From Amphiscolops sp. MND2022 (Eukaryota), in contig OZ076409.1 in the NCBI GenBank assembly GCA_964187785.1, positions 39,682,001 through 39,742,000 of the forward strand: a stretch of DNA of 60,000 nt. The letters are read 5' to 3'. The position numbers and the translations under genes were made by a program. Positions 6,497 to 29,881 of this stretch are shown piece after piece (within the stretch, counting starts at the first letter, position 1; every line of letters begins with the position of its first letter). Below the pieces are notes generated by a model. The model was not told where the DNA came from and made no database searches. It was given only the letters and a program-made list of their open reading frames with translations.

Positions 6497-9050
6497 CCCT
6501 GTTCCCGGGTCGCATAAAGAGCCTTCATTCAGGCGAGTGGGTGCAAGAGCATCCACAACCGTGACATCTCACACCAGCTGTTTACCCACTTCCCAAGGAA
6601 TCATGGTAACACCGTCTGGGCGTTTGACATCGGTTCGGTACAGTCCACGCGGTTCGAGCATTGAAGGCAAGTCGAGAGATCCGCTTTATGAGAGAATTGA
6701 GAATAGCATTACGTGAGAAGCGACAAGAACTCTTGGTGCAAGAAAGACCGTGTAAACCGTCCCGTTCAACTCTTTTACCACAGTTGCGTGTATGCAAATG
6801 TTGGCCCCGAGACGTAAACCAATTGAAATCCGAAGTTGCTGATCATCAAGTTTCAGGTTCTTACAGGGAACGACGTTCAGCCATTGAGATCCGATTTTGC
6901 CTTGATGAGCGTTGAAAATTTTCGAACGTTTGTCATCCATTCTAGAAATCAATTCTTGCGTGGTTTTGATGAAAACAGGTTGTGACCAATTTTTCTGGCT
7001 TCGATCGAGAGGACTTTCCTGTTCATTCGGTAAACTCAACCATTCCTCAAGCGCTTTTGTAAATGAACATCTTCGAATGTTTCCGAGAAAATTGTCGTGC
7101 GAAAGTCACTCGCACCAAACGCTGAGGCGAAAAAGGCGGGAAGTGCTAATAATGATGCGGATGACACCCCAAGACCACCCATTTCAGCGGGCAGAGCCAG
7201 CTGAAAACTCGAAATAACGTCGAAGTTCACGTTACACACTTTGAAATGCCCGTTGCGTACGGTTTTGTTATGCTTTTCCAAGAGAGCTGGGTGATTAAAA
7301 CATGTACTGATTCTCAGGAAGTACAACTTTGGCAGACTGAAGCATTTTTTCAACATAAAAAAACCATAGTGGGCATCTAGTTTTTCATCAATTCCAGTAA
7401 CTTTTTCAGTTCATTGATTTTCTTTTCTAATAAGTCTGCTTGTGATTTCGGGCCGAGCAATGAAGCAAGAATGATAAGTCCATCTTTCTTTGGTGTTTTG
7501 ATCCCAGGGCAAAATTTTAGAAAAATGCTAAAATTGTCGATCGTCGTTTTTCAGTGCTGTCCTGAAGGCAACGAATTTCATATTTCGTGTGTTTAATTTT
7601 GAGTCCCAGCAATTTCTCCGCTTCAACAATTTGTTTGAGATCTTTCAAACTGGTTCTGTAATCATCACTTAAAATTCCATCGTCCAGGTACCATAAGTTT
7701 ATTTTCCACTACAAACTGTCAATGAGATCCTGAATGGAATCCGAAATAAAAACTGGAGGCTCATAATCTCCTTGCTGGGTCCCTTAACAAGATTTGATTA
7801 CTGAATCACCTTAAAAAAGAAAACTTGGTTGACCGTACGCCAAGTGTGAGTACCTATAAAGTTCAGGGCGTATTTCAAAAGTTTTCTCCAGCATGAATTG
7901 TCGGTTATTCGAATTGAAAACGTTTTCAAAGTCAATTTTCAAAATTACGTTCTCTTTGGGCTGGGGGCTTTCTATCAAACAACGGAAAACATGTGAGGCC
8001 AATTCAGCGCCCTTTTTGGTGCCTACGCCTACTTGTCGGCTTCCGTATCTTGCCTGACGTGATTCGAAGCCATGGTATCCGGCGCATTTTGCGGATAACC
8101 AGTGGAAAGTATTGCCTATAGCAAAAAGACGAAGTCCTCCATCAGGCTTTTTCAGCGCAATTAAATTCGCGCAAAAGAAGTACGGCCGAAGTTCGAAAAG
8201 TACTTTTCCTTCGAGAATCACATTCACAAAACTCGTTAAGGCTCTGAGAAAATTCAGTCCAGTTTGCCCGTTAGACTTGGCAGTCGAGTCTTTCAAAATT
8301 TTTGGCCAAATGCCATCCAACCCTGAACTAGAGCCATTGGGGAAGGACATGAAAGCCTTGTGGTCTAAAAACTCCGAGGTTGAAAAACCATCAAAATCTG
8401 TCCGGAACTGAGAAAGTTTCCCTTTGCGGATGTTTCAGCTTGAGGGCCGCGTAGTTGTCGACCGTGAACTCTGCAATCTTGTCGTCGCCTACAGCCAATC
8501 TGATTCCGGCCTTAACATTATCTTCGTCTAATTTAGTGCAAATGGAAAGCAGTCGTCGATCTAACTCGTTTTCTACTGCGCTCCTCTGTCGCCTTTGGGT
8601 CTTTTCTCAATGACACCATCCCGAATACGCTTGTTGATTATTGCACTGAGTGATGACCTCTGACGTTTACCTCCTTGAGGTGGTTTTGCCAAAAAACAGC
8701 TTAGAGAGGAAAGCAATATGCACCACAAGGCAATATTTTTCGGGGTAGCACAAATATCAATAATTTTGGGTATCAAGTTTTCAACTAGAGTGTTCCGTGA
8801 ATTTTTCGGAACTCTTTTCAAATGAACAACGCCTTAATTAAAAAGCGTGTCTGGTCCAAAGTTATCATCGTGACACTGTGAGGGATTGTGTACACTAAAG
8901 AGCATCAACAACGTTTAAATTCGGCAAGGCTTTGGGCCTCCGTTTTTGATAAATTGGCGCATTTCATATTGACCCATCCGTTGCAAAGCCTACAATTTAC
9001 CCAGTCTATCAACCCTGAGGGCTTCAGACACTTCAGAGCCTTGCAGGTTT
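6497..9050 (-). mobile_element. Degenerate CRE-clade non-LTR retrotransposon (N-terminal PHD-like finger, RT, restriction-like endonuclease)
   Basis: KKPDGGLRLFAIG, QVGVGTKKGAE, LKIDFENVFNS and LPAEMGGLGV motifs; HGLSC..RPDGVT..PW RLE region at ~6560-6760; DWVNCRLCNGWVNMKCANL at ~8950-9010. Confidence 0.8.
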
Positions 9051-9550
9051 CATTATTTTTCATCATAACTCAACCTCGAAACTTAACCAATTTGCAGGAA
9101 TACCACATTTGGGTGTGTGCCAGTTTCCCCAAAAAAACAATCACAACAACAGTGAAGCAATCTGTGAATGAAAAAAACCATGAAGCGTATGCTTTGCAAT
9201 AGTGCAGTAGACAAAACCATTTTCTGGAAAACAATGTGCTCGCGGACGAACAAGGTTCCAGAAGAAAACGAAACATTGTCAGACCGTTATACAGGCTACA
9301 TCTCAACCAAGAACTCTAGAATTACGAAAACACCAACTGCGAAATTGATCTAGAAAAGTCCCTCGACAGTGTGTGGATTGATGGCTTACTATTTGAACTT
9401 AGACATTATCAGGTGAATGGCAAAATGTACTTCATCATACGAACCTTTCTGCAGAACAGAGAGGCGATCATTGAGTTATCTGTCTATCTTTCACCTGCCT
9501 TTAAGATAGACATTGGTGTCCCTCAAGGTAGTGTCCTGCCACCACTACTA
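9051..9550 (+). mobile_element. LINE RT fragment
   Basis: DLEKSLDSVWIDGLL and GVPQGSVLPPLL motifs. Confidence 0.7.
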
Positions 9551-9569
9551 GTTGTTGTGATAAACTTGC

Positions 9570-12500
9570 ATGCTACACGTGGCCAGGACGCTTGCCTAGC
9601 AAAACCCACAAGTGTGAAAAATGTGCAACCTGTGTGGCCGACAACTCTGATGAAGTACAGTGCTCAAAGTGCGTGAACTGGTTTCATCTGGCTTGTAGTG
9701 ACGTGACGACAGAATTGGATCCCCATCTCGAAAGAATCGAGGGATGCCTATGGGTCTGCGAGTCCTGTTTACAACTGGTCGAGTACGATCTACAACAACC
9801 AGGTGGGACCAAACCTAATATTGATTCCATTAAGGATTGTGTTGATTCGACTGTTGAAGCATCTATAAAGCCTCTTCATAATAAGATTGCGCAATTATCA
9901 AAAATAATGTCAGAGTGTAAAGAGGAAATTGCCAAACACCAAATCCAAGTGCAGGAAAAAATCATTCATATTCCTCGTTTCCAGATAGAAGATGATACTA
10001 GTTTGCAAATTAAAATTGACAATATACTCGAGGCCGATAAAGATCAGAAACAAACTTTGAACTACGAAGAAGAAAAAGTGAGCAGTATCATGGAATTCCT
10101 CAGTGAAAATCCAACTGTTATCGGAATTGACGTGTTGGAAAGTTTGATCCTCTCAAGGAGCGACCACGATCAATGATTGTGACGCTCAATAGCCCATGGG
10201 ATATCAGGAAAATCTTAGCAAACGCACATGAACTCAAAAATTTTCCGGAAAAACGAACTAATAACTTATGAGGAAAGACAAGTGGAAAGAACTCTACTAT
10301 ATAAACGCCAAGAGCTTAGTTGGACGAAATGGTTGATTACATACCAAATTAGACGTTAATATATTCAGTTGCCAAAGTATTTATTTAGCCGATTCACGGC
10401 ATATTGTTGCCACCTGTATCTACCAAAATGCCAGACATATGCTAGACATATGATCTTAACAGAAACATGGCTAACAAAGGAAAAAATGGATGGCGAACTT
10501 CATTTACCCCATTATTGTCTAATACGAGCAGAAAGGGAAAGCAACCTCAGCGCAACTGCCCATGGTGATGTTCTAATAGCAATCCACAAAGACCTCAAGT
10601 ATTCCCCAGTCACTTTACCCACTGAATTACAAGTCTCATGTGCGGCTGCAGCGTTTATAGAACTGCACAAAAAACAACTTGTATTGCTTGCATATACAAC
10701 CCACCTGATAAAAGTACGTACCGTCTACCTATAAACGAGTGATCCTCTTTTTTCAAACCATTTAAAACCAGACAGCCGATTGGATTATGATAACGGGTGA
10801 TTTTATAAGGAAAAAGACAAATTGGGCTTCTATGACCTCAAGTGATCGGTATGAATAAAAGATCTTTGATGAATTGGATAGACTCAACTTTACACAAAAA
10901 ATAGGTTTATCCACCACCGAGCGGAACACCCTGGATCTTTTGTTTGTCAAAAACCCTGACTAAGTAGACGCTGCACGAGTACGAATCGAATTTAAGAATT
11001 CTTGTGAAAATAAGTTCATTTTCCCATACCTTTCACAGTTTGTTTGCTATCTACTAGACATGAATTCCAACCCAGCCCAATTTCTTCTACCAATTATTCT
11101 TGAAACAGATGTGATTACGACATAATGAAAGCACTTATAATTGAACAACCTTTCTTGCCCAAGTGTTGTAGCAACTGTGACCAAAAACTTGAAGAATGGT
11201 ATGCTTGGATTTCTGAAAAGCTGGACTCAACCACCCCAAGGCGAACGCAACACAGAAGAAAGCTCCCCCCATGGATTACACCTGGTACCTCCAATCTAAT
11301 GAATAGACTCTTCATTGTCAAAAAAGTGTATGAAAAACATCCAAACAGTATTTCAAAACGATATCGTTATGAGCTGAAAAACAATGAGATTGATAATGCA
11401 CTTGCTGAAGATCTCGTTGCATATCAAGAGAAACTCCTTGCCTCCAAAAGTGGATAATTATTGTTTAAACACTTCAGACAGCTAAAGCGCACTGCCATGT
11501 CGCCGCACCTAGAAGGAAGGACGAGTCTGCAAGAAGATTTAAAGCCCGAGCTAATTTACTAATAAAGTACTTTGCAACTATTTATCGAGAAACCAGTGCA
11601 ATAACAATGCCAGATTACACTGAATTGGGATCTTTTGACTTGAAACTTTGTCGAGATGAGTTAAGTCAAAGTGCAAAGAATTTAGTAATATCTAAAGCGC
11701 GAGGCCATGATGCTATCCCCTCTATACTGTATGTTAGGTCGGCAGATACACTTATTCATCCGCTCTACAATGTTTATCGGAATCTTGTTCGAACTTTTAT
11801 ATTCCCTTTGAAATGGGAGGAAGCCGAAGTGATTCCAGTATTCAAGAAAGGTTCGCAGACAAAAGTCGAAAATAATCACGCAATAAGTTTGTTAAACATT
11901 GGTAGCAAAACTTTTGAGATGATTATATTCCAGCGATTATTGGACATCTACGACCCCCATATGCAGGAGCGACAATATGGTTTCAGAACTGGTAGATACC
12001 CAATCTTGAGACTGCTGATAACGCTAAGTGAGATAAATTCCAATATTCAGAATGTTGAATGCCTTACACTCTTCTTATTCGACTTTCAGAAGGCGCTTGA
12101 TACGATCATATACGACATTCTTTGAAAAATGCAAAAACGTGAACTCTGTGCCGAACTTTAAAAACTCCTTTAATCATATCTCTGTCATCGCTATTTGAAG
12201 GTCCAAATTGATCTGGTTTTATCTGAGGCCAGTCAAGTTGAGAAAGAAATTCCTCAGGGTTCCTTTCTTGGTTCATTCTTTTTTGTGTTAATTATCGACA
12301 ATTTACCGAATGATATTGTATATATCTCTTCATACCTGTTTGATGACTACCTTTTTTCATTGTACACAGGACCCAACAACCCAGCCAATTGTTTAAAGTC
12401 TAATTTATGCCAACTTCAAACTTGGAGTGAAAAAAAAATGTTATTTTTCAATGTCAAAAAGTGCCAATATCTTATTCTCAAAGGTTCTCTAGGCTTTGAG

Positions 12501-12588: not shown

Positions 12589-12788
12589 NNNNNNNNNNNN
12601 NNNNNNNNNNNNNNNNNNNNNNNNNNNNNNNNNNNNNNNNNNNNNNNNNNNNNNNNNNNNNNNNNNNNNNNNNNNNNNNNNNNNNNNNNNNNNNNNNNNN
12701 NNNNNNNNNNNNNNNNNNNNNNNNNNNNNNNNNNNNNNNNNNNNNNNNNNNNNNNNNNNNNNNNNNNNNNNNNNNNNNNNNNNNNNNN
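12589..12788. other. Assembly gap (200 N)
   Basis: Run of N; the flanks are not necessarily contiguous in the genome. Confidence 0.99.
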
Positions 12789-13143
12789 CGAGGAACCTAT
12801 TTTTTACCATTGAACTTGTGACGTTTGTAAAATTTGAAGTACGTTTTCTTTTACCGCTAATGATCAAGGGGCTTCCGATGAATTTTTTGGTGTGAATTGT
12901 ATTGGAAAATTTATTCCATTCAAATTTTGATTTATGATTACATAGTAATTGAATTCTTCAAACCAAACCTAATTTTTGCGTTACGAAATCTACTTTGGAA
13001 TGGTTTAAAATTAGGTTCAAGCTTTCGTCAGGATTTTAAAATCAAAATTGTTCCAGTGGAAACTTAGTAACAACATTTTAAACTATCACGTACACTAAAA
13101 CCAATGCCACAAAAGTCTAAAAATTTGTCATTCCCTTTCAACG

Positions 13144-15858
13144 TCAATTTTCTTCGTCTGAGTCATCTCCACGATTGTCACTGTTTTCTTTTCTTGGGTC
13201 TTGACTACCGCTGCATCGGCTGCTGGTGTTTCCGGAGCTGCTCCCCGACTGGGTCTCACTGAATTCAGAGCGGGCTACCGGATCTTCATAGTCGAACATT
13301 AACTGCTCGAAGGGATGAATTGTTTTACTTGCTCGGAGGACAACATAACGTTGATTGTTGTCGGCAAATACAATGACATCAGTGGACTTCATATTGGCTT
13401 CTAAAACTGAGTGATTGGCAAGGCGACCCATACATCTACTATCAGGGTGGACAGGACACGTTTCCGCGGAGGCATTGATTATCCTTCGGCCGGGTCCTTT
13501 GACTTCAAGACAAAACTCCCGTTTAACACCTTCAATGGCGGATACTTCGTCCATTGATGTCTTGAGGAAAACCTGCCCGTGGTAATCAATGACGACTTCA
13601 TTTTTCTGGAAAACTCGGGTGGCAACGATTCCTCGTCCAAACTTGCTAAATGAAACTTGCGTGACTCCGGGCCATTTTTGAGATCGACATCTCTCCATAA
13701 GCAAAGTTTGATCTTCAAACTCCATATTGCTTGCCAATCCTTTGTAATAAATCTTCTGAATTGCCTTGTTCGTTTCTACTTTTGGGGTAATAAATATTGG
13801 GAGCACAAGTAGATAAACTTTTCTCAGGTCTTGGTTGCAGTCATTCTGCATCGTCCACTTCTGTCGCTGGAAATAGCTCTTCAGTCTCATTTCCAACGAA
13901 GCAAGGTCAGTTTTTCCATTCATATGCTTGAAAAAAGCATGGGCACGAGCTGATTGGCGGGCATATCTCTGTCGCTCCTGGTGCCTTCTCACCGCCGACT
14001 GCACGACCTGGTAGTCCAAGGCAATGTCCAGAGTCTGCCAAATTGCTCTAGTTTGGACCTTCAACTTAGGGAGTACTGCTTCAGTGTCGTTTGCGATGGG
14101 CAACACAACATGAAGGTGCCGTTCCAATTCCCACAGCGGGCTAGCACAGTGTTTCAGTACCTGTTTAAAACGATACCAACATTGAATTGTGTCTAAATGC
14201 ATTCTGAATTAATGATATCAACAGTGTACGTGTCACAGATAGATCGACCCCTGATTGGTACCAAAAACTAGCAAAACTAGCTCTACAATATAAATTGTCC
14301 CAGTTTCCACGGATTTTCAGTATAATTTGACTTGCTCAAAGAAAGCAATGCGGAAAGCAAGACCATATCTTTAAACACATGGCGTGGAAACCAGATACAA
14401 ATCTTAATACATTGCGAACTTTCACTCAAAGGGGTGTACACATTATTGCGCGTTACCATGAATGTCCTAGATTCCACGGTTTTAAGTTTGAATTGACTTA
14501 CTCAAAGAATGCATTGCGGAAAACAAGACCATATCTTTAAACACATGGCGTGGAAACCAAATACAAATCTTAATACATTGCGAACTTTCACTCAAAGGGG
14601 TATACACATTATTGTGCGTTACCATAAATGTCCTAGTTTGCACGGTTATTGAGTATAAAACGGCTCGCTTTTAAAAGTCTTCGAGAAAAAAAGACCATAT
14701 CTTTGAACACATGGTGAAAATCGAATACAAATCCTAACTCATAGTTCTATTCAAAGGGGTGTGATGATGATTTGTTTATACATACCGACTCCATATATTG
14801 GTCAACAACGTGGCTAGGTCGGAAGTTGGATTTCCCAGCTGAATTCACAAAAAACAATTCGGTGTACAGGATCCGATTGTCTGTCTCACTCAGCAGTCTT
14901 TCGAAAGGAGTCCCCTCACCGTGGTCCAGAAACTCGCTTCGAACACTCACGAAGTAGTCCACAAAGCCTTCCAATAACCATCGTGGGATATTGTAGCACG
15001 TTTTTCTGGCGCACCTCTCCGCTACATCTATCTCAAGCACGGAAGAGGCATTTTGGTCGTCTGATTCTTTCATCTTAACTGCTGCCTGCGCCACGGCGTG
15101 GACAGTCACATTGCTGACCTCCCGATCCAGAAAACCCAAGAATATTAAAACGTAAGCCATTAGACTTCGAAAGAACTCTATTTGGACCTTTTTCGTAGCC
15201 AGAATTCTCTTACTGCAACGCGATACATTCTCTGTTATTGTCCATTTAATGAAAGACTCCACTGTATCGGTTTTGTAATCAGGCTTCTTCTTCTTGGCGG
15301 GAACAGTCTAAAAAATGGAGAGTTTTCAAAAAGTGTCTTTATTGTATTTAAAACTGATAACGCATCCTCCAGGAATTAAAAAGTAAATTGGTTTCTATGA
15401 AACGTAACCCTTAATTGGAACGCAAAATTTGAACAATATGTATTCAGAAGTTTTACTATACTTACCATATCAACTGGTGGGGGCATTGGACGTTTGTTTG
15501 CTACATTATCGGAGCTTGGATGTCCATTGGACGGTTTTGGAGGAATTATGATCTCAGCTGGTAATTCGCTCTGATTGTTTAAAAGCTCGTTTATGACCTC
15601 TTCAGCTTCAGTCGGGAGATGTTCCGTTATTATTCCATCCTCATTGAAGCTGAATTCAGGTGGCTCTTGGAGGCGGAACGGAGTGCTGTTGAGTGGCCCG
15701 CCGGGTGTTTGGCTAAACATCACGGGCGATACCAGGGGCGTGAACAAACCAGAAGGAGTTTGCATTTGGGTTAATGTCAGAGGCGTAGACATGTCCGCGG
15801 AAGACGGTGTTGGAATTGGGGGCATCGACAAAGGCAGCGAGGTTTTATTTTGTTCCAT
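13144..15858 (-). CDS. Spliced ~643-aa protein: Pro/Ser-rich N-terminus + tyrosine-recombinase-like domain + SETD8/PR-Set7-like SET methyltransferase
   Basis: Phase-0 exons 15858-15466 (ATG|gtaagt), 15307-14786 (tttag|ACT, TCG|gtatgt), 14160-13144 (aaacag|GTA). SET motifs GRGIVATRVF, VIDYHG, GRLANHS, EQLMFDY. YR-like segments RSLMAYVLIFLGFLDREVSNVTV, LLEGFVDYFVSVR, LFFVNSAGK, TRAIWQT and RHQERQRY. Confidence 0.8.
14290..14760 (+). repeat. 166-bp repeat array 1 (~2.5-3 units) in intron 2 of the SET gene
   Basis: gacttgctcaaaga.. recurs at 14329 and 14495; same unit at 18950, 22980 and 25390. Confidence 0.9.
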
Positions 15859-16156
15859 TTAGGAAAGTTAGATTTTCTATTTTGACGGTCTGATTTTCAG
15901 AGACGATTTCAAGATAATGATTGTAGATTTCGAATATTTGTTTATATGAATTACGATAATATCTGATATTTAGTAATTAGTAGTGCCATATCCGGCTGTG
16001 CGACCGAAAACCTCAATCTTAAATGAGGCATGTAAAAAGCGTTATTTCGGAATGAGTCTAGTGTCTTCATTTCCAATTATTCCTAATAGTGCACCTGCTT
16101 CGTAATTAGGTGACGATTAGCTGTAATTAATTTGGGATGCAACCAATCTCGTTAGC

Positions 16157-16476
16157 GTCTTCTTTAACGCTCATCCCATCAACATTCATCACATAAAAAG
16201 TCTACATATTCTATTAGTTTCGAGCTTTAAAATAAAGTCTTCTTTAACGCTCATCCCATCAACATTCACCACATAAGGGGTTTACACATTCTATTAGTTT
16301 CGAGCTTTAAAATAAAGTCTTCTTTAACGCTCATCCCATCAATATTCACCACATAAGGGGTCTACATGTTTTATTAGTTTCGAGCTTTCAAATAAAGTCT
16401 TCTTTAACGCTCATCCCATCAACATTCACCACATAAGGTGTCTACACATTCTATTAGTTTCGAGCTTTAAAATAAA
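16157..16476 (+). repeat. 4 x 80-bp tandem repeat ending at the start codon (copy 1)
   Basis: gtcttctttaacgctcatccc... at 16157, 16237, 16317 and 16397; ATG at 16478. Confidence 0.95.
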
Positions 16477-16477
16477 A

Positions 16478-16849
16478 ATGCTTCTCCAAACCTTCTATGA
16501 AAATGAAGTTGTGCAAATCTTGGATCCTGCGACATCAATTTGGGAATCAGCGAAAATAATTTCCTTTGTGAGCGATTGGTGTGTAAGAATTAAATGGGTC
16601 GATTGGTCTTACAATAAAAAAGAAGATATCACTGTTCCCGAAGTATACAGACCTGACAAAAATTACTGGAATATTAGAAAATCCCACAATCTTGTCCGCG
16701 AAGAAACTGTGAGCAACAAAAGACGGTCAACACCTCTTAGCTACAACGCTCGTCGACTGGTCAGAAACGATCAAATTTACTTTTGGCAACCACAATGTAA
16801 CTGTGTAGATAGGAATGAGGCTAGTGTCTTCATTTCCAATTATTCCTAA
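16478..16849 (+). pseudogene. Truncated duplicate of the Tudor-like gene (N-terminal domain only, 123 aa)
   Basis: Near-identical to the first ~110 aa of the 17241 ORF, then reads into the duplicated promoter and stops. Confidence 0.75.
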
Positions 16850-16919
16850 TAGTGCACCTGCTTCGTAATTAGGTGACGATTAGCTGTAATTAATTTGGGA
16901 TGCAACCAATCTCGTTAGC

Positions 16920-17239
16920 GTCTTCTTTAACGCTCATCCCATCAACATTCATCACATAAAAGGTCTACATATTCTATTAGTTTCGAGCTTTAAAATAAAG
17001 TCTTCTTTAACGCTCATCCCATCAACATTCACCACATAGGGGGTTTACACATTCTATTAGTTTCGAGCTTTAAAATAAAGTCTTCTTTAACGCTCATCCC
17101 ATCAATATTCACCACATAAGGGGTCTACATGTTTTATTTGTTTCGAGTTTTCAAATAAAGTCTTCTTTAACGCTCATCCCATCAACATTCACCACATAAG
17201 GTGTCTACACATTCTATTAGTTTCGAGCTTTAAAATAAA
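16920..17239 (+). repeat. 4 x 80-bp tandem repeat (copy 2)
   Basis: Same units as 16157-16476, shifted by 763 bp. Confidence 0.95.
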
Positions 17240-17240
17240 A

Positions 17241-18679
17241 ATGCTTCTCCAAACCTTCTATGAAAATGAAGTTGTGCAAATCTTGGATCCTGCGACATCA
17301 ATTTGGGAATCAGCGAAAATAATTTCCTTTGTGAGCGATTGGTGTGTAAGAATTAAATGGGTCGATTGGTCTTACAATAAAAAAGAAGATATCACTGTTC
17401 CCGAAGTATACAGACCTGACAAAAATTACTGGAATATTAGAAAATCCCACAATCTTGTCCGCGAAGAAACTGTGAGCAACAAAAGACGGTCAACACCTCT
17501 TAGCTACAACGCTCGTCGACTGGTCAGAAACGATCAAATTTACTTTTGGCAACCAGAATGTAACTGTGTAGATAGCGAAAGATGCCAAGAGGACCGTTGC
17601 TGCGGGTCAGTTGTGATGGGTTGGGTAAAAATTAATGACCCTTTCTGTCAACAATGTTTGATAACCGACGTCGAGGACAATGATGAGTATGTTTCGTATC
17701 GCCAACTAAGAAATAAACCTTGTGTAAGAGACACTGAACCAGAAATTGATGAAACTGAACAAGATCATGAATCAGGATCTGACGTACATCGCCCATTCGT
17801 CAAAAAGCAAGCCCGTGTGACAAGCGCCACCCAACCGATGCCACAAGTCGACATTCTTTCCTTGCTTCCCAGTGTTGACGATGACGTTGAATTAACATAT
17901 GCACCCTGTGAAAATGATATCATAAAGGTAATGTTTTCTTGCTTTTTTGCTTACAAACTTTGCTTTTGAATTTTGATAACCCTGGATTGGCACCAAATTT
18001 TTCAAAGTATTTTTCCCACCAAATATTTGTTCAATCTTTTTATTTTCAGGTGGGATCTATTGCATCTTACGCAAATGATGATTTTGAAATCAAGAAGATT
18101 TACTATGATCATCAGAAGAGAAAAGCATGTGCATTCATGCAGAGCAGAAGTGACCCTGACATTGAAGTGCGCATCCCGACAATTCGTGTTGTCACAACAA
18201 CATCTTCTAAAGGCGATGTAATGGATTTTAATTCGCTTCTGGAGCCCATGGACCAAGCCTATGCTTTGTTTTCTGCAATAAAACGAATGGTGGGACTCTC
18301 AAGAAAGAAGCATTCCTTAACCGCAACATTAGTTCCCTGTACCCCACTGACAAAAAAACTCTGTGGCTTCGAAACTGGCAATCTCAAAGAGGCCGTTAAG
18401 TATAGTGTTGCAAACCAAGAGGGACATAAATGGTGCAACGGTACATGGGATACTGTACTTGGAAGAAATTGGGATATGATCCCATGTCACGCAAGCGATG
18501 GAGAAGATGTTCTTATAAAGACAATGAGGTTCATTGAACATCGAGAATTTGGCATGTTCACGATTCGTGTCCAGTTTTTGTCAAGCCAAGGCCACTACAA
18601 AAACAGCCAATATAGAGATCTGTTCGAAATGTACCTGTCTCAGATGCATGAAATACTCTTAAATACTCCTAAATTTTAA
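17241..18679 (+). CDS. Spliced ~438-aa protein with an N-terminal Tudor/chromo-barrel-like domain and an unknown C-terminal domain
   Basis: Exons 17241-17927 (AAG|gtaatg) and 18050-18679 (ttttcag|GTG), phase 0. FYENEVVQILDPATSIWESAKIISFVSDWCVRIKWVDW has the spacing and aromatic residues of Royal-family barrels; Cys-rich middle region. Confidence 0.7.
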
Positions 18680-18949
18680 AAAAACTTTCTATTCGTGTTT
18701 GATCATTTTTTGTTTCTTCAACAATTTATCTTTCATCATTATTAGTAATTATTACAATATAAGCTCCATGACCTTGTATTCTTGAAAATTCTTGAGAAAA
18801 GTCTTAGACTATCGAATTACTTTATTCTGAAATGTAATGCACTTGTCACATATAGATCAACCCCTGATTGGTACCAAAAATGATACAATCTCAACAATTT
18901 CCGGGATTTTATTTGCATGTTTTCCAACTTTTTTCAGGATATTTGATTT

Positions 18950-19365
18950 GCACCAAAAAGCAATGCGGAAAACAAGGACACATCCTAAAAAACATGGCAT
19001 GAAATCAAAACACAAATCGTAATGCATTGCTCAATTCTGTTCGTCTCGGTTTCCACGGATTTTCAGTAAAATTTGACTTGCTCGAAGAATGCAATGCGGA
19101 AGTCAAGACCATATCTTTAAACACATGCCGTGGAAACCAAATACAAACCTTAATACATTGCGAACTTTCACTCAAAGGGGTATGTATGTATGCAGACACC
19201 GGATTGCGCATTACCATAAATGTCCTGGTTTCCACGGTATTTAAGTGAAAATTGACTTGCTCAAAGAAAGCAATGCGGAAAACAAGGACATATCTTTAAA
19301 CGCATGGCGTGGAAACCAAACACAAGTCCTAATACGTTGCTCAATTTCATTCGAAGGGGCGTAGT
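18950..19365 (+). repeat. 166-bp repeat array 2 (diverged), between the Tudor-like gene and the transposase
   Basis: caatgcggaaaacaaggac...gtggaaacc...cattgcgaactttcactcaaagggg units. Confidence 0.85.
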
Positions 19366-19762
19366 CATGGTTTTCAGAAAATAATCAAACAATTTTTGTT
19401 TTTCTTTTTTTATTACCTTTTGAGTATTTCCAATCAGATAACGCTTTACCAAGATGAAACAAACAGTCCTGAGAAGTGAAAACTTCTAATTACGAGTGAT
19501 AAGACTTAATGGAAGACTCTTTTGCATCTGATTGTGATTATTGACAAAATGGCCTTGGGTGATATGGACTCAAATTATTAAAGTATAATTGAACCGTAAT
19601 TCATCAGTTTAATGAAGAGACTCAAAACCGGACTCATTTCACTTGTGGGTTTGTGTATCTAATTGCATTTCATTTTATTGTATGGTGAGGGTTGCAGTCT
19701 GACAAATGTTCTACAATCTATACAATTTCACTTTGCAATAAACCTAAAAACCAGCTTTAGAA

Positions 19763-22700
19763 ATGACTCCACTGTCAATGTGGGAAAGAAATATTATCGA
19801 AGCGGAAAATGGGAAATTCTTCGCTAACTGTCGACTTTTTGACGATATATCCGGAAAAGAAATACCGAATAAGTTTCGGAAGTTCGAGACACTTGTTGGG
19901 GAAATGTTGACTGGGACAAATTTAAATTCAAAAGAATTCATTCGAAGAATTGCTGTTAAAGGCCAGAAAACCCCCCCTGTATTTGTAGCAGCAAAATTGG
20001 CAAAACTACTTGTACTGCGTGGATTTAAAGACTTCCCTTGGAACTCAGCCAGAAGAGAGTTTGTCAGTTTGTTTTTCAATAATGATGTCATACCATATAA
20101 CAATCCTTACATGAAAGACACCCTTGTGACACCTGCAGATGCGACTCCTGAAGATTCGGCCCCTGAAGGTCAAGTCAGTGACAATTCTCTCTCAAAAGAA
20201 AGAAAGCTAGAAATATCAGACGCCAAAAAAGTCAAACATGAACAAACTGATCCAATTAGAACAGATCTGATGTCAGAAGTTGGGTTCAACAGTTTCATGA
20301 AAAAAATCAAAAGCTCTGCAAATAAGAGAAAAGATCAACGATTCACAAAAAAGAGGACCCAAACTTAGTCAAAAAAATTGTAGAAGATCTTTTCGAAAAA
20401 AGAGGATCTACTGATGAGTTCAGGCACCATTTATCTCTTGTCACGAAAACGGGTAACACGGAAGATGTTATAAAAGTTATTCGAACAAGACTTTCAATTG
20501 TTGGACTCGGATACAATTTAGTCCCATGCATTCGATTGGTCAAGAAGTCAACATCCGAAATTCAGTCCTACTTTACAGCAATGTGTGAGCCAGAAAGAAC
20601 CTTTTCTGGTTTTCGCTGCAACCTGATAAAATGCGTGGAGACGGTGTCATACTTCTTGTTTGGAACGAAAGAACTCAATGGCCAACGAGTTGATATCTGG
20701 GGAGATGGTTGTGAAATTGGAGGTGTCGAAACAACACGAATTGCATTCCGGATCCTTACTGACAAAATGAAGTGTCAATCATCCGATGCAGTATTCTGTT
20801 TTGCTGCATACAGGGGTAAAGATAGTAGATTCGCAATGGAGCAAAACCTTGGGCCAACTATAGCTGGAGTTCAAGAGTCTGGTTGGCTTTTTATGAAGAC
20901 CCTGGAACTATCAAAACGCGGAGTTAATTTAACATACAGTGGCGATTCGCCGTTTTTAATGAGATTGGTGCTCGGAATCACAAATGAATCAGCTAGCCCA
21001 TCGAAAATGCCACTCTATATAACAGAACTTGATTACACACCAACAAAATGTCATCATGAAACTGGTCTACGATCTGATGTTATTATACCCTTCAGAACGG
21101 ATCTTCCAAAATCTTCCTTGGTCTTCTACGAAAATATACAATCAGTTTGTCCTGATGCCACGCATATGACCACCCGTTGTGTTGAAAATGACCTCCAAAG
21201 AATTGCACAGAAAATTATCAGAGAAAAGCATCCTAATCATGATGTAGCAATTCGCCAGCTTGAAGAAAACTTGACAAGAAGAGATGCGAGACCATACTTT
21301 CAGTTCAACATATCTCATAGAAGTGGTTCGTGTATCGGTACTGTAGGTGCAGTATCCCTCTCAGGTGGTAGTGCTCTAGCGGTCATTGCTGATAAAGAGG
21401 AGCTTGCAGGTGCAAAAGACGGTAAAATTAGCGATCTTTACCATGGTGTTTGGGGTCCCGAAGATATCATTGTTGGCAGTGAAGAAAACGCAAATGTCCC
21501 TTGCGTTAACATCCTAAGAAACTGGTTTCCTAAACTTTTCAATAAAAATAACCCCAAGCAAAAAGAGTCCAATGACAAATTCATATCTGCTTTTGATGCT
21601 TGCGAACTCCTGCGATCGTGTTTAAACCAATGTGTTTTATGTCTGCGAGCAGAAGAATTCAACAGTGAAACGTTCAAAAAATGGGCTGAAGTTTATTACC
21701 AAACCAATATCTTGATATTCGGGCATGCCGGTTTGACACCTTATAAATTGAAAATGCTGATGTTTCCTCAACTTGTTGAGAGTGGATATATAAAGATATA
21801 AGACCATTTGATCATTTGTGTGAAGGTCTTGAAAAATCGAACCACCAAGCTAATCGTGGCTTTCAGACAAAGACAATGCGCGGAGAAGGTAAGATCTATC
21901 ACAAGGATCCACTATTCCTCGAGTCGTCCTTTTCTTTCTTGAAATTTTTAAGATTCGCAGTTGAAGTTGAAGACAAAGGCTCGGACGCTGAACCAACTTC
22001 TAAGATTATCATGGAACCTGAACAAGACGCAACAACAGAGGTCTACTTTGATGACCATAATATGACTGGAAACAGAAAGATCTATCAGACAGTTTCGAAC
22101 AGTACCACAAACAGCGTAATGAGTATACTTCATAGTGCAACAAAAGTGATGGGCATTGACGTTCCGGGACCTGAGTACCTTGATATTTGCCGCATAGAAC
22201 CACCGTTAACAACTATCGCCATTGGATGTCAAGAAAATCCTTTAAGTGGATTAAGATTTTGTCTGCTTGGTCGCTTGGGTACTTGGAAAAAACATACTCT
22301 AACACATGACATGGTGAAACAATTGATCATCAATATGGGAGGAACTGTTCTAGAAAATGAACGAGCTGACGTGTTGATGAGCACCCATTCACAGCTCCCC
22401 AATTGTTTTGTTCTCGTCAAGGACGAAAAAGACTTAATCTTAGGTACCGGTTCCACAGAGGAAATTAATGACATGAAGAAATCAAGGAAAAGAGGGTCAT
22501 CAGTAACACGGGAGGGTGGAAATGAACCATCACAATATTCCAAAATAGCAAAACGATTCGCAGCTGGGGGTTTCAAATTCTTGAATATCGAATTTTTATC
22601 TGAAGTTGACGAGAAAAAAATGCTGATTGACCCGGAGCCATACATTCTTCAGCCCGGATCCAAACTTGTTGAAAATCGTGTCAACGACAAAGACCTTTGT

Positions 22701-22841
22701 TCTTGGACCAATGCAGTGGAAAAACACTGGGTGAAGGTGTATCTGCGATTGTCGCTCTCAAGAGATACCGTGATGGCACTTTTAAACAACTTTCGTTTTG
22801 ATTTACTGTTCTCTTCTAATTCATATGTTACCCGAACTTGA
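19763..22841 (+). CDS. RAG1/Transib-like DDE transposase with C-terminal BRCT domain (~1000 aa; frameshifted in this assembly)
   Basis: Ordered RAG1-core-like motifs: IWGDG (D1), QSSDAVFCFAAYRGKDS, SGDSPFLMRLVLG (D2), CPDATH, LTPYKLK, CEGLEKSNH (E). BRCT-like PLSGLRFCLLG...VKQLIINMGGTV. Frames join at the A6 run 20347-20352 and at ~21795-21800; possible third shift at 22689-22691. Confidence 0.75.
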
Positions 22842-22979
22842 AACTATTCAATAAATTCTTCAAAAATAAGTATTTTCATTAGGTTTATTAAGATGCTCCT
22901 ACGAAACTAGTTTTACATATCATAGATTGGTGCCAAAAAGCACACAATATTGGGCTCCGTTTCGGCAAACTTTCGTTTG

Positions 22980-23365
22980 TCTTGGTTTCCACAAATTGAA
23001 TGCGCATTACCACAAATGTCCTAGTTTCCACGGTTTCAAGTTTGAATTGACTTACTCAAAGAATGCAATGCGGAAAACAAGACCATATCTTTAAACACAT
23101 GGCGTGGAAACCAAATACAAATCTTAATACATTGCGAACTTTCACTCAAAGGGGTATACACATCATTGCGCGTTACCATGAATGTCCTAGTTTCCACAGT
23201 TTTAAGTTTGAATTGACTTACTCAAAGAATGCAATGCGGAAAACAAGACCATATCTTTAAACACACGGCGTGGAAACCAAATACAAATCTTAATACATTG
23301 CGAACTTTCTTTCAAAGGGGTATACACATTATTGCGCGTTACCATAAATGTCCTGGTTTCCATTG
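22980..23365 (+). repeat. 166-bp repeat array 3, between the convergent transposase and JmjC genes
   Basis: Two near-complete units starting ~23049 and ~23215. Confidence 0.9.
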
Positions 23366-23617
23366 AGTTTTTACCTAGCGGAAATTCACTGTTGAGGTAT
23401 ACTCCTGATTTTTCTCCTATTATTCTTGCATAATCTTGGAAATTATTGCATTAGACGTCCAAACGTTTCAAAGCATGTTTTGAATAATTGAGAATTTTTC
23501 AATTCGTTTTCCAATTAAACTTCTTGCGCTCGTCACTGAATAAAACAGATTGTAAGGTATTTGGCAGTTTTGTCATTTATTTGTATGATACTGAAAATCT
23601 AAATCTGAATCTACAGT

Positions 23618-26600
23618 TTAATCTAAATCTAAAATATCTAGTTCAAGGGGGATTGAGCGGATTCCCGTAATGGCAGCAACAAGAGGACAGCGTTTTGGGT
23701 GCAAAGATGGATCTACCATCTTTGCCGGCAAGAGAGTTCTTCCCTTGCCTTTAACATGGGTAACCATCATTGCAGGTTTTGACTCGAGTTCTAGTAGATC
23801 CGTTGTCGTCATTACTTCCTCGTAGCTTTTCGTGTAGGGGTCAACAGCGATGGGCACATGCTCTGGAACAGTAAGAGCCTTACTGGGGTCAGTATTCTTC
23901 TCGGGATGCTCTCTCAAATAACTGCGGCTGCTGCTTGGTGGCTCACGCAGTGTCACTGAAGCTCTTTTTTGGCCCAGTACGATGTGAAGTCTTTCAGGAC
24001 TGAAATCGGGTAGCACCTGTAAAACGTAAAAATCAAACTTTAAACCTGGAGAGCAAACTTTCAATTGAAAAATCCGAAATATTTTTGGTATAGTTCTTGT
24101 TTATTGACTTAGAAGCACAAAATTTCACTCAGTTGTGTTTTACTTGCATGTATATCAGTCAGACATGAATGTAGAGGATGATCAATTGAAAAAAGCAAGA
24201 CTTGTTCATAAACATAAGTTTTTGAATTAGAAAATGACCCTCGATTGGAACCAAAATGGAAATGATTGAAAATGGAAAATTGAAGTTTTGTGACCAAACA
24301 AGAGTGAAGGCTTAACAATCTTACTTCACGGGCGGCGTGTTCATTGTATAGTGATTGCACTGTGCTGTACATCGACACCAGGCGTCGACAGAGTCGAGGG
24401 CACAGCTTTTCGGCAATACGGTACATCAGAAGTACCAACATCTCTGGAAGATCAGGGAACTTGTCATCGGATCTTCTCGGGAACTCGACGATGATTGAGT
24501 GTCTTATCATGGGCAGGTGCCCGAACGCCAGGAAGTTCGTTCCCAACGAAATGGCATTGCCTTTCGTAAGTACAAAGTGGAGGAAATTTGCGGGCATGAC
24601 TAGAACATCTCCAGCTGTGACATGCAACCGCAAACATCCCTCTTCCAGCTGGTCGATGTTCCCGAAGAATGTTGGCCTGAAAATAAAAGTACATCGAAGT
24701 TGCTTTTCTAATTTTTTGACATCAATAGAAGTAAACTAGAAAAAAGTTTAAATATTTGAAAAGAGACGTTAAATGCTTGCTTGTTGTTTTCCATCACCAA
24801 AAAATGTTAGTCAAAAAGTATAATTGTTTGTTTTTGAAAATAGAACAGTGTTCTTGAAGACAATAAAGTTGGTGTATTAGTTAAGTTTTGTTACTTACGT
24901 AGTGTCGTTCTCAGCATTCGACCATCTTTCAAAATTACTGAGGTTTTTCTTCGACGGTTTCACCAAGAAGAAAATCTTCTCTCCAGTTAGAACTGTGTAA
25001 AACACAGACGTCGAAGAATAATCCTGATGCCACGTCGTGTGCGCAGAATCTTGAGTGACCAGGACATAATAGGGAGTAGAACAAGAGTAATGCTCGGTTC
25101 TCGACTTCCCGATCTCCCTGTCGGCCAAATGGTTGATGGAGTTGTCAGCCACCATCTTGGGTACTGAGTATATGGCCTTGGGGAGTGTCCTGACATCGAT
25201 GACGTTTAGAGGGTAATACCGACTGCCTGGATGACAGTTGGCCAGCTCCACGAAAAACTCGTCATACGCGTGTCTGCAAAAAAACATCTATTAAATGATG
25301 CTAGGCAAGGTTCTAATTCATGTTATCAACAGTATACTTGTCACAGGTAGATCGGACCTGGATTGGTACCAAAACGAACTCGACATAACTGTCCCAGTTT
25401 CCACGGATTTTCAGTATAATTTGACTTGCTCAAAGAAAGCATTGCGGAAAGCAAGACCATATCTTTAAACACATGGCGTGGAAACCACATACAAATCCTA
25501 ATACATTGCGAACTTTCACTCAAAGGGGTATACACATTATTGCGCGTTACCATGAATGTCCTAGATTCCACGGTTTTAAGTTTGAATTGACTTACTCAAA
25601 GAATGCAATGCGGAAAACAAGACCATATCTTTAAACACATGGCGTGGAAACCAAATACAAATCTTAATACATTGCGAACTTTCACTCAAAGGGGTATACA
25701 CATCATTGCGCGTTACCAGGAATGTCCTAGTTTCCACGGTTTTAAGTTTGAATTGACTTACTCAAAGAATGCAATGCGGAAAACAAGACCATATCTTTAA
25801 ACACACGGCGTGGAAACCAGATACAAATCCTAATACATTGCAGAACCTCACTTGAAGGGGTATACCCATGGTTTGTGTTTTGGAACAACTAAATTCGGTT
25901 TTACTAAATGCTAAACATGGTTCAAACGAGTAAAAAGTGTTTTTTACCTCTCCGATTCTGGCTGACTTGACTTCAATTGGAGCATCAGGTTCAGCAAGGT
26001 TGACCGGTCGCAGAAGCCGTTTGATCTCCGCGACAAAGCCTTTTTTTCGCGGAGAATTTTGGGATTTTCAGTCCTGTGCAATGCTTGGCTCCATTTCTCC
26101 AAATCAAGGGGACACCATGTCGAAGAAAGTGACCAAGGTGTTCGGTTTGATTGTCATGGGGACCCTGCCACTCAGCGTAGGAAAATTGACATTCCAGAGG
26201 CACGTTTTCGCAAAATGCGAAGTGCTCTTGGGTGCCAAATGGGGCCGCTGGAGTCCCAGAATTGAATGTCAAATCAAGTGGCATCGGTGGTTGGGCAATT
26301 TGACATTTGACTGATCTCGCAATGTGGTTCCTTAGGCTGTAGCCGTACCCGAATGAGGTCCCACACGAAATGCAGAAATGACGGCTTCTTTTTTTTCCTC
26401 TCGCAGCTTCTGTAATTTCAAAGACAATTTATCAAATGAATGTCCAAAATTTTTTCTCATGAATTTCATTCATGGTATGACCCATGATTGGAACCAAAAA
26501 TCTTCCAAGATTTCATGAATGCTTTCATAGTATGACCCATGATTGGAACCAAAAATCTTCCAAAGATTTTATGAATGCTTTCATGGTATGACCCATGATT

Positions 26601-28030
26601 GGAACCAAAATCCTTCCCGAAAATTTGTGTTTTTAGACCTTCCCTTTCACATCAGAAAAACATTGCCCTTCTTTTTCTATTGCATACGGTAATCGGTTCA
26701 AGACCGTAAAATATTTCAAAACAAGAAAAAAAATTCTGGAAACAATCTTAACACTAACGGTATTGGTACATCCTGACTTCTTCTCCAGCAGCAATCTTTT
26801 CTTGTTGCTTCGTGCAATATTTGGCTCTTCTTTGATGGCGCTCTTTACTTTTTTTGGTCGTGAAAATCTGACCACATTTCTCGCACGTCAAATTCTGGGC
26901 AACTTGTTCCTGCTTGCTGACACTTTTGCATCCGGGAAGATGACGGGTTAAGTGCCATTTTCTTCCAGCAACGTAGTCGCAATTCGAACACGGGAAACCT
27001 AAACATAGCCTTTTGAATTATACGAGATGAAGAAGTCAAATAAAAAACCAACCTATACATACAATATACATACCAAAATCAGATTGTTTTCCACGAGTTA
27101 CAAAAATGATAGGTTTCATTTAGATTGCTCGAAACTTTGAAAAATGGTAGACATGATATATTGATCCACGTGATGTTTGATTTGTCAAACTATTTATCAT
27201 TTCAATTTCAATATCAAAAAATGGAGATTGTCGCTTGTCAATTGGAATTGTCAAAACGAGTACAAGAACGAGTAAATGGAAGTCTTACGTTTTTTAGGTG
27301 GCGGAGTTGTATCTCGAAATTCGTCACAGAGTTGTCGTTTTCGGTTTTCTGGCAAACCAGGGCAAGTGCGGGCATGAACAGCAAGGGCTTCTCGAGTGGG
27401 GGCATAATGGTCGCAAGCACCGATTGTGCAGAGATGACCTGAGTAATGAAACAACGATGAAAATATATACAAAAAATGTGAATATATTCAAAAATTATTT
27501 TTTGAACACCGCTGTTCATACAGCCTCAAAATTTCAATACAAATAAATCCAAATAAAGTAAAGAAACGTTCATCAAAACTTCAAACATTTTTCATCTTCG
27601 CAGTTGAATTTACCCGTTTCAGCAGTTTGATAGTTTTTGACCTTTTTCACTGATAGTCAAGAAAAAGTAACGCAGGAATTAACGACTTACCAAGGAACAG
27701 TTCTGATGATGAGTCAGATGAGTCCATGCGGGATCTAAAGTTCTGCGAAGTGCTGGGTCCGCTGGGTCCGGGGGCTTGCTCAGAAGTACTTTGCTCAGAA
27801 GCAGCTGTTTTCTTCGATTTCGGCTGTAACAACTTGAAAATGTGAATAAAAGGTCCAAAATATCAAGTGCAAATAACATGAAATTTAAATTAGTTCAAAT
27901 AACGAAGACAAAATTGTTTACGAGAAAGTTTGGATCTTTCCGTCTCATCCCCCCATCGATTTAAGTCCCCCAGTTATTATTAAATAAAAGTTTTATAAAT
28001 TACCTTTAAAAAAATATTAAAGTATCTCAT
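23618..28030 (-). CDS. Spliced ~716-aa protein: four C2HC zinc fingers + KDM2/KDM7-type JmjC histone demethylase domain
   Basis: Phase-compatible GT-AG exons: 28030-28004 (tentative), 27823-27691, 27438-27289, 26998-26759, 26409-25948 (one extra base in T7 run 26041-26047), 25287-24899, 24676-24325, 24016-23618. JmjC motifs TTWHQDYSSTSVFYTVLTGEKIFFLV and AGDVLVMPANFLHFVLT..SLGTNFL with intact H-x-D...H. Fingers CTIGAC..HARTC, CSNC..HLPGC, CEKC..HQRRAKYC, CISC..HIARSVKC. Confidence 0.85.
25390..25870 (+). repeat. 166-bp repeat array 4 (~3 units) in a JmjC gene intron
   Basis: Unit starts at 25423, 25589 and 25755 (exact 166-bp period). Confidence 0.92.
26465..26620 (+). repeat. 3 x ~55-bp tandem repeat in a JmjC gene intron
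   Basis: tcatggtatgacccatgattggaaccaaaa-type units with GATTGG at 26486, 26541 and 26597. Confidence 0.9.
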
Positions 28031-28394
28031 TAAACATACAATTTTTTTGGAAAAGAATCTGCGTAAAACAATTTGAAAGTTATCAGGACACTGTTTGAAA
28101 AACTGCCCTAAACTTTGAACCAGAATCTGCTTCTCAATTGTAAAATCAATTACAGTAGGGGGCTTTTATAACGACCCAAAGGGGCAGTTGATTTTAAACT
28201 GATAATTTCCTGATAAAATCCAAAAACAGTTTCTTGGAATTTGGGATTAAAATTGAAACAAGTAGAAGCCAAGACGCAATGAATAGCTAACTTTAATTTC
28301 GACGCTCTGAATACTTTTGTTTATTCCAATCTTGGAACCAATCTTTGAAAAAAATCCATAAGCAAAATCAATACAAAGACACTTTAGTGAATTC

Positions 28395-28556
28395 CCAAAT
28401 AACATAAGAGCAAATATCATAAAACGAAATTAGTTTCAAATGACAAAAATGAAATGAGTTTGACATTATAAAATAAAATTGTTTACGAGAAAGTTTCATT
28501 TTCATGTTATTTGAACCTAATTTTGTTTTTATGCTATTTGCTCTTATGTTATTTGG
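28395..28556. repeat. ~160-bp imperfect palindrome (foldback/MITE-like)
   Basis: ccaaataacataagagcaaata...aaatgaaa pairs with tttcattttc...tatttgctcttatgttatttgg; partial relative at ~27856-27930. Confidence 0.8.
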
Positions 28557-28822
28557 TACCTAATCGACAATTTTTCAACCAAAAATTTATTTCCGAAAAC
28601 GAAAAAATCAATTTACCATTATGATTGGCTTCGGGTTATATCCGTTGATTGGCTGAGGGTAGTATCGGCTGCTGGATGTCTGCAAAACTTTGAGTTGTTG
28701 AGAGAATCAAAGAGAGATTCAATGGGAGATTCTGGCTTGTTAATCAGTTAACAGTCCGAACGGTGAGAAAACAAGTTTGACAATGAAAACTGCCGGTCAG
28801 TTAGCAATCGGTCAGTTGCTGT

Positions 28823-28988
28823 GATACGCGCCGCTGATACGAGCCGCTGATTAGCCAATAGGAATCACCCACAGTTGGAACAGTCATCAGTTTGGTACGA
28901 GTTGCTGATACGCGCCGCTGATTAGCAAGGAAATTACTCACGATTGTAACAGTAATGATTTTGATACGAGCCGCTGATACGCGACGCT
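28823..28988 (+). repeat. Five copies of a GC-rich 13-mer gatacg(c/a)g(c/a)cgct
   Basis: Copies at 28823, 28836, 28907, 28963 and 28976. Confidence 0.85.
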
Positions 28989-29854: not shown

Positions 29855-29881
29855 ATAGTATAGTAGTATAGTATAGTATAG
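29855..29881 (+). repeat. (tagta)n microsatellite
   Basis: atagtatagtagtatagtatagtatag. Confidence 0.7.

Follow-up and report, generated by a model that had tools for sequence, protein, structure and literature searches.

A SETD8-like methyltransferase fused to a putative recombinase-derived domain in a giant DNA transposon of Amphiscolops sp.

A 60,000-nucleotide stretch of the Amphiscolops sp. MND2022 genome (assembly GCA_964187785.1, contig OZ076409.1, positions 39,682,001–39,742,000; the window in what follows) contains, at positions 13144–15858 of the minus strand, a gene in which a SET methyltransferase domain follows a region resembling a degenerate tyrosine recombinase. The original prediction offered two roles for that middle region: a DNA-binding module that targets the methyltransferase to the 166-bp repeats of a surrounding element, or a divergent resolvase acting on those repeats. 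What is this gene a part of, and which of these roles, if either, is its middle domain likely to have? The answer to which we give about an even chance is that it is a transposon accessory gene, coding for a SETD8-like methyltransferase coupled to a likely tyrosine-recombinase-derived, non-catalytic domain that would hold DNA or chromatin.

The fusion gene and its transposon

The coding segments of the gene are as follows.

15858–15466, minus strand: exon 1, residues 1–131, a Pro/Ser/Thr-rich low-complexity N-terminus
15307–14786, minus strand: exon 2, residues 132–305, with a basic KKKK stretch and the putative recombinase-type N-lobe (Leu191 at the catalytic-Arg position)
14160–13726, minus strand: first part of exon 3, residues 306–450, a helical region with a conserved basic motif around Tyr371
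13725–13144, minus strand: remainder of exon 3, with the SETD8-like SET domain, residues 451–607 (Tyr498, Asn554-His555, Phe594, Tyr596), and an acidic tail

Removal of two introns, 158 and 625 nt long and each bounded by GT..AG, joins these segments into a single 643-residue frame, in agreement with the original prediction of one ∼643-residue protein spread over three exons. Support for the joining that does not depend on splice prediction comes from an intronless paralogue of the same genome (L127, a 680-residue frame of subfamily E of the element described below), which is collinear with the spliced product across both junctions and aligns with residues 24–607 at 34% identity (E = 2e-103). 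Judging from these frames, we regard the three-exon product as real. The full subfamily E frame is present at four of the eight loci that were checked. Intron 1 is absent from subfamily C, intron 2 is retained at the same site or a few codons away in subfamilies B and C and in the metagenome contig L157, and exon 1 is weakly conserved in subfamilies B and E. Among the six other subfamily A copies, three yield the same 643-residue product; its stop is read past in one, two internal stops are found in one and a frameshift in one. L119, considered as a read-through copy, was rejected because it contains stops. The number of introns varies between the subfamilies (none in E, two in A and three each in B and C, partly at different sites) and introns often contain repeat units, which suggests that intron gain is tied to repeat insertion.

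Between subfamilies A and B, the proportions of synonymous (pS) and nonsynonymous (pN) differences are 0.80 and 0.21 in the middle domain and 0.76 and 0.14 in the SET domain; synonymous sites are saturated (pS 0.74–0.87) and hence no ratio of nonsynonymous to synonymous rates is given. By these values the middle domain is maintained by purifying selection. Public sequences outside this genome include related SET domains of 31–46% identity. A search for longer homologous proteins yielded none among 1554 candidates, which is weak evidence. Of 99 pattern matches among metagenome contigs, five stood up to checking; the contig L157 carries the entire fusion gene, with the catalytic Arg likewise gone, beside the same open reading frame (ORF) of no assigned family that accompanies the gene here. 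None of the 12 matches in viral contigs was confirmed, and a tblastn search of phages gave only three weak matches (E = 0.06–1).

An ∼18-kb transposon, present in multiple copies and bounded by terminal inverted repeats (TIRs), carries the gene as cargo; its coordinates in the window are:

12789–30322, no strand assigned: giant DNA transposon of subfamily A, 98–99% identical over this span to all six copies that were fetched
30301–30322, minus strand: right TIR, 22 bp; the element ends 5'-CATTA...TAATG-3'

The window copy lacks ∼1.7 kb of its left arm, including the left TIR, at an assembly gap (12589–12788), and the complete copy A3 measures 18,593 bp. The right TIR recurs with one mismatch at the left end of A3 and A5, and the repeats begin CATTAC. 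A 2-bp flanking duplication (TA, TT, AA or GT) is seen in 10 of the 11 copies for which both ends are available, namely six of seven from A and B and all four from E, one B copy being mismatched. This count excludes the six of 13 A/B sequences that have no left end (the window, A1, A2, A4, A6 and B4) and subfamily C, in which the right end was not found (nested insertions). In the genome (1.07 Gb) exon 2 is matched at least 150 times, in groups of ∼99, 90, 68 and 52% identity, and a further group of at least 26 rows lies at 41–44% identity to a subfamily C query. Four subfamilies (A, B, C and E) share the same four genes, with proteins that are 29–78% identical and a gene order that is rearranged in C and E. 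Termini, gene set and copy number led us to reject three other identities: a Crypton, a Polinton-type element and a host gene.

Individual copies have some peculiarities of their own. An assembly gap recurs at a near-identical place in the left arm of six of seven A sequences (the window, A1, A2, A4, A5 and A6), a site that adjoins a TA microsatellite visible in the gap-free A3. The window copy carries a 763-bp tandem duplication (16049–17271), which takes in an 80-bp array together with the beginning of the no-family ORF and is not found in the six other aligned A copies. A 1,032-bp non-autonomous derivative (L126:6628-7659) has the TIRs of the family and contains a single repeat core; its duplication is AC.

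The SET domain and the middle domain

The SET domain is recognized by Pfam (PF00856, E = 1.5e-10), and the best 14 PDB sequences are all SETD8, with E = 1.8e-5 for the single exon sequence and 6e-13 for the family profile. By sequence it is thus closest to SETD8, as originally proposed. The motifs GRG, YxG, RxxNHS and ELxF/YDY of the SET family are all present and the signature is intact as predicted: GRLANHS and LMFDY are found, and YHG, RLANH and DY are invariant in an 11-sequence alignment. We consider it quite likely from these residues that the domain is catalytically active. At the Phe/Tyr switch, which we take to be Tyr334 in SETD8, the protein has Phe594; wild-type SETD8 entries read LLYDY, and Phe occupies this position in at least 90% of 11 relatives, so that the Tyr of the mono-methylating SETD8 is replaced. 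A Phe/Tyr switch mutant is described in the relevant passage of PMC8897848 as converting SETD8 from a mono- to a di-methyltransferase. With Phe at the switch, the domain would, with somewhat better than even probability, add more than one methyl group.

The middle domain was folded as residues 205–530 of the intronless paralogue, using a 16-row alignment. A structural scan of 48,161 chains places Cre at rank 29 (Z = 5.3, root-mean-square deviation 3.8, 118 residues), with residues 1–168 of the model lying on Cre residues 134–272. In a second comparison with 626 chains, the same span of the model aligns with four entries of topoisomerase IB (Z = 3.7–4.2, deviation 5.0–5.2, 112–119 residues) and with a Staphylococcus integrase (Z = 3.8, deviation 4.7, 122 residues). 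The rows in which at least 112 residues align over model residues 1–168 are solely Cre, topoisomerase IB and the Staphylococcus integrase. Recombinase descent is favoured because these longest alignments all come from one superfamily, that of the DNA breaking–rejoining enzymes. The predicted helix–helix–hairpin–helix order of the model fits a recombinase-type domain, and in the Atlas comparison a cluster in which 13% of the members have Phage_integrase is found at rank 6 (score 0.91); residues 1–170 of exon 3 gave a best score of 0.82, which is uninformative. We take the aligned region to be the N-lobe of the catalytic domain, the alignments stopping before what we assume to be the C-terminal H-x-x-R, Trp and Tyr of Cre. 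Model residues 168–229 match only generic small helical bundles. Going by the model, the middle domain is probably derived from a recombinase. What stands of the original prediction of a recombinase-like fold is therefore a set of low-Z structural matches to three families, confined to the N-lobe (Z = 3.7–5.3); every sequence profile was negative.

The catalytic residues are another matter. GFLDRE is present at Gly189–Glu194, as had been noted. The register of the first catalytic Arg was taken from the motif pattern, G-x-R-x-x-E, and the Cre sequence rather than from a residue-level superposition. In this register the Arg of an active recombinase corresponds to Leu191, and Leu is found in all six rows. 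The likely place of H-x-x-R is Trp315-x-x-Glu318, where the variants are WELE, WNLE, NQLK, YTLK and TILK and an Arg occurs only in P0025. No Lys, His or second Arg is conserved in the alignment. Of the downstream residues thought to be loosely retained, Arg343 (in QTRAIWQT) and His365 (in RHQERQRY) are not conserved across the subfamilies, His365 being Arg in E, L157 and L160. Tyr371, in contrast, is conserved in eight of nine rows; it belongs to a basic motif that lies beyond the part superposed on Cre. As read from these positions, the middle domain is almost certainly unable to cut DNA.

PF00589 has seven matches in this genome, none of them in this element, and tblastn showed no similarity between them and the fusion protein. 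A 1055-residue open frame (L108–L110, G000:C3:2083091-2085292) contains three tandem partial Phage_integrase matches ∼993 bp apart. Intact-looking tyrosine recombinase frames are present on two small contigs (L107 on C1368 and L111 on C616) that are GC-rich, unlike the main genome, and possibly come from a symbiont or contaminant; a tblastn search of phages with L107 gave no matches.

Companion genes, repeats and competing readings

The element carries three further genes and four arrays of the 166-bp unit.

17091–18679, plus strand: divergently oriented gene with no family assigned, ∼430–460 residues, one frame in B and E
19748–22841, plus strand: DDE-like transposase with a C-terminal BRCT-like domain; three frames in the window copy, a single 1017-residue frame in A3 and A4
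23618–26428, minus strand: PHF8/KDM7-like JmjC demethylase gene, multi-exon, with an N-terminal C2H2-like finger (PHF8, E = 5e-11; exon model partial)
14290–14737, no strand assigned: 166-bp tandem unit, 2.7 copies, within intron 2
18931–19373, no strand assigned: variant 166-bp-unit array, upstream of the transposase
23001–23362, no strand assigned: 166-bp array between the transposase and the JmjC gene
25390–25869, no strand assigned: 166-bp array between two coding segments of the JmjC gene

The transposase motifs Asp320, Asp400, Cys468-x-D-x-x-His473 and Glu692 are invariant in four subfamilies, Asp320, Asp400 and Glu692 being the candidate catalytic triad. We call it DDE-like because of its motif pattern, that of RAG1/Transib-type enzymes, and because of the element termini. 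It is very likely, from these features, that the element moves by this enzyme, and the transposase, the CATTA..TAATG ends and the 2-bp duplications may together represent an unnamed lineage. The JmjC protein is nearest to PHF8/KDM7A; its metal ligands, H-x-D and the distal His, are kept in A, B, C and E, and the Fe(II) ligands are those of a KDM7-like enzyme. The original prediction did not take in the transposon as such or this neighbouring gene. The no-family ORF is found in all four subfamilies and in L157 (L043:1860-3209; L127:4102-5478; L157:661-2283), and searches of Pfam, PHROGs and the PDB gave no match to it. Its start is partly duplicated at 16049–16821 in the window copy. By eye alone its N-terminal part looks Tudor/chromo-like, a label that no search backs.

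Across 17 sequences, the core of the 166-bp unit is matched 124 times in the elements (294,762 bp) and once in the flanks (245,238 bp); this sole flank match falls within a 1-kb derivative that shares the ends of the element and shows an AC duplication. Despite saturated synonymous sites, the core is kept at 79–83% identity in B and at 80–86% over 55–70 bp in C. An 8-bp motif, G(C/T)GGAA(A/T)C, is common to all four subfamilies and occurs 25 times in the element of the window, 24 of these non-coding, versus eight times in the other 42 kb; the repeat units contain an inverted pair of it. The repeats thus look like constrained protein-binding sites, as a prediction from their conservation. A second recurrent motif, TTGG(A/T)ACCAA, is found in A and B and is nearly absent from C and E; its sites in the window (14236–14275, 18849–18888, 26457–26619 and 29346–29645) include a 56-bp tandem array.

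In the mechanism that we propose, the DDE-like transposase would mobilize the element, the dead recombinase-like domain would hold DNA or chromatin, and the SET writer and the JmjC eraser would reset histone methylation on the element, which would as a consequence stay expressible or mobile. That the fusion protein and the PHF8-like demethylase act together in this way is a proposition that we favour slightly. PHF8 removes H4K20me1, H3K9me1/2 and H3K27me2, according to the passage on it in PMC8897848, and removal of repressive marks by the JmjC protein of the element is therefore plausible.

Several points weigh against this picture, and they are best set beside the alternatives. The middle domain might be an unrelated α/β scaffold or nucleosome-binding module with only a chance resemblance to a recombinase. 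The profile search that had been suggested for it is in line with this, as neither Phage_integrase nor any other recombinase profile was matched in Pfam, PHROGs or the PDB profiles, and hhalign against an alignment of nine recombinase sequences scores 14.9, at the level of 40 column shuffles (maximum 14.5), with the register wrong. Foldseek with the paralogue model returned nothing at E ≤ 0.001 from the PDB and viral libraries. The match to Cre is only at rank 29, the Z values reported above being within the stated noise range of the tool and below those of 28 unrelated helical rows, which are generic helical bundles of short length. The model is that of the paralogue, with a mean predicted local distance difference test score (pLDDT) of 58.9, a predicted template-modelling score of 0.40 and residues 117–153 below 50; exon 2 folded alone has a pLDDT of 38.8. 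Coincidence would nevertheless have to account for three separate families of one superfamily giving the longest alignments over the same span of the model, for the fitting order of secondary-structure elements and for the Atlas lead, and we consider it rather unlikely. At the opposite extreme, the middle domain could be an active resolvase or integrase, divergent in sequence, that recombines the repeats or mobilizes the element. The conserved Tyr371 and the inverted motif pair in the repeat units would suit such an enzyme. It is very unlikely, to the point of being scarcely credible, because Leu replaces the catalytic Arg in six of six lineages and the second Arg and the His are unconserved, no Lys being conserved either. 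Mobility is moreover explained by the TIRs, the 2-bp duplications and the DDE-like transposase of the element itself, and Cryptons are described in the relevant passages of PMC3212892 as having no terminal inverted repeats. The resolvase of the original prediction is not supported. A point against the main reading as a whole is that the transposase has no Pfam or PDB family match (the sole weak match being BRCT, at E = 0.05–0.1).

If the middle domain is a dead recombinase derivative, it need not be what reads the repeats. The methyltransferase and demethylase may act without sequence-specific targeting by it, the transposase or the no-family ORF binding the repeats and perhaps recruiting the enzymes. 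Another element protein could be the repeat binder because the motif of the repeats is found in the subterminal regions too, next to both termini, where it is partly at a 22-bp spacing that fits a transposase-binding site. No N-terminal core-binding domain was detected in the putative recombinase, residues 1–131 being of low complexity, and no neighbour of the gene is better conserved than the no-family ORF, L157 included. The A-type repeat core is unmatched inside all four E copies, whose unit differs, and the counts of the 8-bp motif have to be read with care, as it was chosen from the top k-mers after viewing these counts and the repeats inflate them. As a candidate binder, the transposase or the no-family ORF is on a par with the fusion protein, and that the fusion protein itself reads the 166-bp repeats is possible but doubtful. 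Two observations speak for targeting by the middle domain nonetheless: it is under purifying selection, and most motif copies are internal, in the introns and spacers of cargo genes (the 24 of 25 that are non-coding), as reported in PMC5735166, in its passages on the matter, for the targets of VANC. We regard action without such targeting as an explanation with a minor share of the probability. In place of the chromatin of the element, the enzymes might also modify host chromatin in general or a protein other than a histone, such as a host defence protein or the transposase. SETD8 has non-histone substrates (PMC8897848, in the passage concerned), and the residues following the SET core and the insert region, which contact H4 in SETD8, have diverged here. 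Given this divergence, a histone would be no more than a candidate substrate, H4K20 being a guess from the nearest relative only. A PHF8/KDM7-like demethylase is co-carried in all four subfamilies, however, which points to histone marks, and we see little chance for a non-histone or genome-wide target relative to editing of the histones on the element itself.

Other mobile DNA surrounds the copies. Copy E1 lies within a Polinton/Maverick-like stretch (L124:1-7400, L126:3510-4750) with integrase-, ATPase- and protease-like frames recognized by eye. The window contains decayed BEL/Pao retrotransposons (30245–31915, 46099–47135 and 48965–53563), one of which abuts the right end of the element at 30323 and which may point to an animal host, and reverse-transcriptase fragments like those of long interspersed nuclear elements together with a PHD-finger ORF1-like frame (1847–2686, 7811–8434, 9532–10176 and 11469–12125).

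Significance and comparison with known systems

Young copies, which are 98–99% identical and some of which have all frames open, carry both a SETD8-like methyltransferase and a PHF8-like demethylase. Human SETD8 and PHF8 write and erase H4K20me1. The element-specific repeats are a ready candidate binding substrate, so that self-editing of histone marks by a transposon becomes directly testable, and a compact protein combining DNA binding with a SET domain could serve as a part for epigenome editing. None of the families tested accommodates the transposase, which may represent a new lineage.

The gene product is not SETD8 proper. SETD8/KMT5A/PR-Set7 gives its best match in the PDB, and the likeness takes in the helix preceding the SET core and the YHG and RLxNHS motifs; the protein nevertheless has Phe at the switch and a divergent insert and C-terminus, and is transposon-borne and multi-copy. 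Catalytically dead recombinases are known from Cryptons, as DUF3504 proteins, Cbf2/Ndc10 and Gcr1, and in MarCry-1_FO a Crypton is fused into a DDE transposon, which is mobilized by its transposase (PMC3212892). These likewise keep a recombinase fold without the catalytic residues; unlike the present gene, they are host genes or GCR1_C carriers, and the passages on them describe no SET fusion. DUF3504 has no match in the fusion protein. Cryptons themselves are characterized in the same passages by 4–6-bp terminal direct repeats and by a recombinase as sole mobility enzyme (PMC3212892), whereas the element described here has 22-bp inverted repeats, variable 2-bp duplications and a separate DDE-like gene.

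In the red alga Bostrychia, giant transposons of the Plavaka type (EnSpm/CMCT) are 17.4–19.1 kb in length and have accessory genes PAG1–3 (bioRxiv 10.1101/2025.02.11.637652, in the passages on them). They are alike in being DDE transposons with three accessory genes (one of no known family, a SET gene and a 2-oxoglutarate oxygenase) and internal tandem repeats proposed as binding sites. There, however, an adenine methylase is the fusion partner of SET and a ParB-like domain that of the oxygenase, whereas here a SETD8-like SET domain is joined to a recombinase-like domain and the oxygenase is a PHF8/KDM7-like JmjC protein. The CMCT clade is described, in the part of PMC12730594 that deals with it, as having 5'-CA..TG-3' termini and target duplications of 2–5 bp, with PlavakaB ending CATCA..TGATG. 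CATTA..TAATG and the 2-bp duplication in 10 of 11 copies agree with this. We do not file the element under CMCT because the C(2)C and H(3-4)H motifs, located after the second D and before the E, are not conserved (alignment read by eye), C-x-D-x-x-H being found instead. HarbingerS and oomycete MuDR elements also carry SET genes, and are thus DNA transposons with methyltransferase cargo, but of other superfamilies and hosts, and the passage on them mentions neither a recombinase-like fusion nor a JmjC partner (PMC12730594). A literature search turned up no account of the fusion or of the element; Repbase, Dfam, subscription journals and supplements lay outside its reach. We regard the element as a new variant among giant transposons that carry chromatin modifiers.

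According to the passage concerned, proven transposon-encoded anti-silencing is limited to plant VANDAL elements (bioRxiv 10.1101/2025.02.11.637652). The fullest version of our proposal, which is unlikely as a whole, would add to these an unclassified giant cut-and-paste lineage, probably of animals, that carries a writer and an eraser of histone methylation, the writer being aimed at the element's own repeats via a dead tyrosine-recombinase domain, in other words a VANC-type system outside plants. In the VANDAL/VANC system of Arabidopsis, as described in the relevant passages of PMC5735166, an element-encoded accessory protein is likewise found together with short motifs that are amplified as tandem repeats in introns and spacers and differ between related families. 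VANC acts on DNA methylation, is presumably unrelated in sequence and is experimentally proven, whereas the present system is known from sequence alone; if self-targeting holds, the element would resemble VANDAL/VANC.

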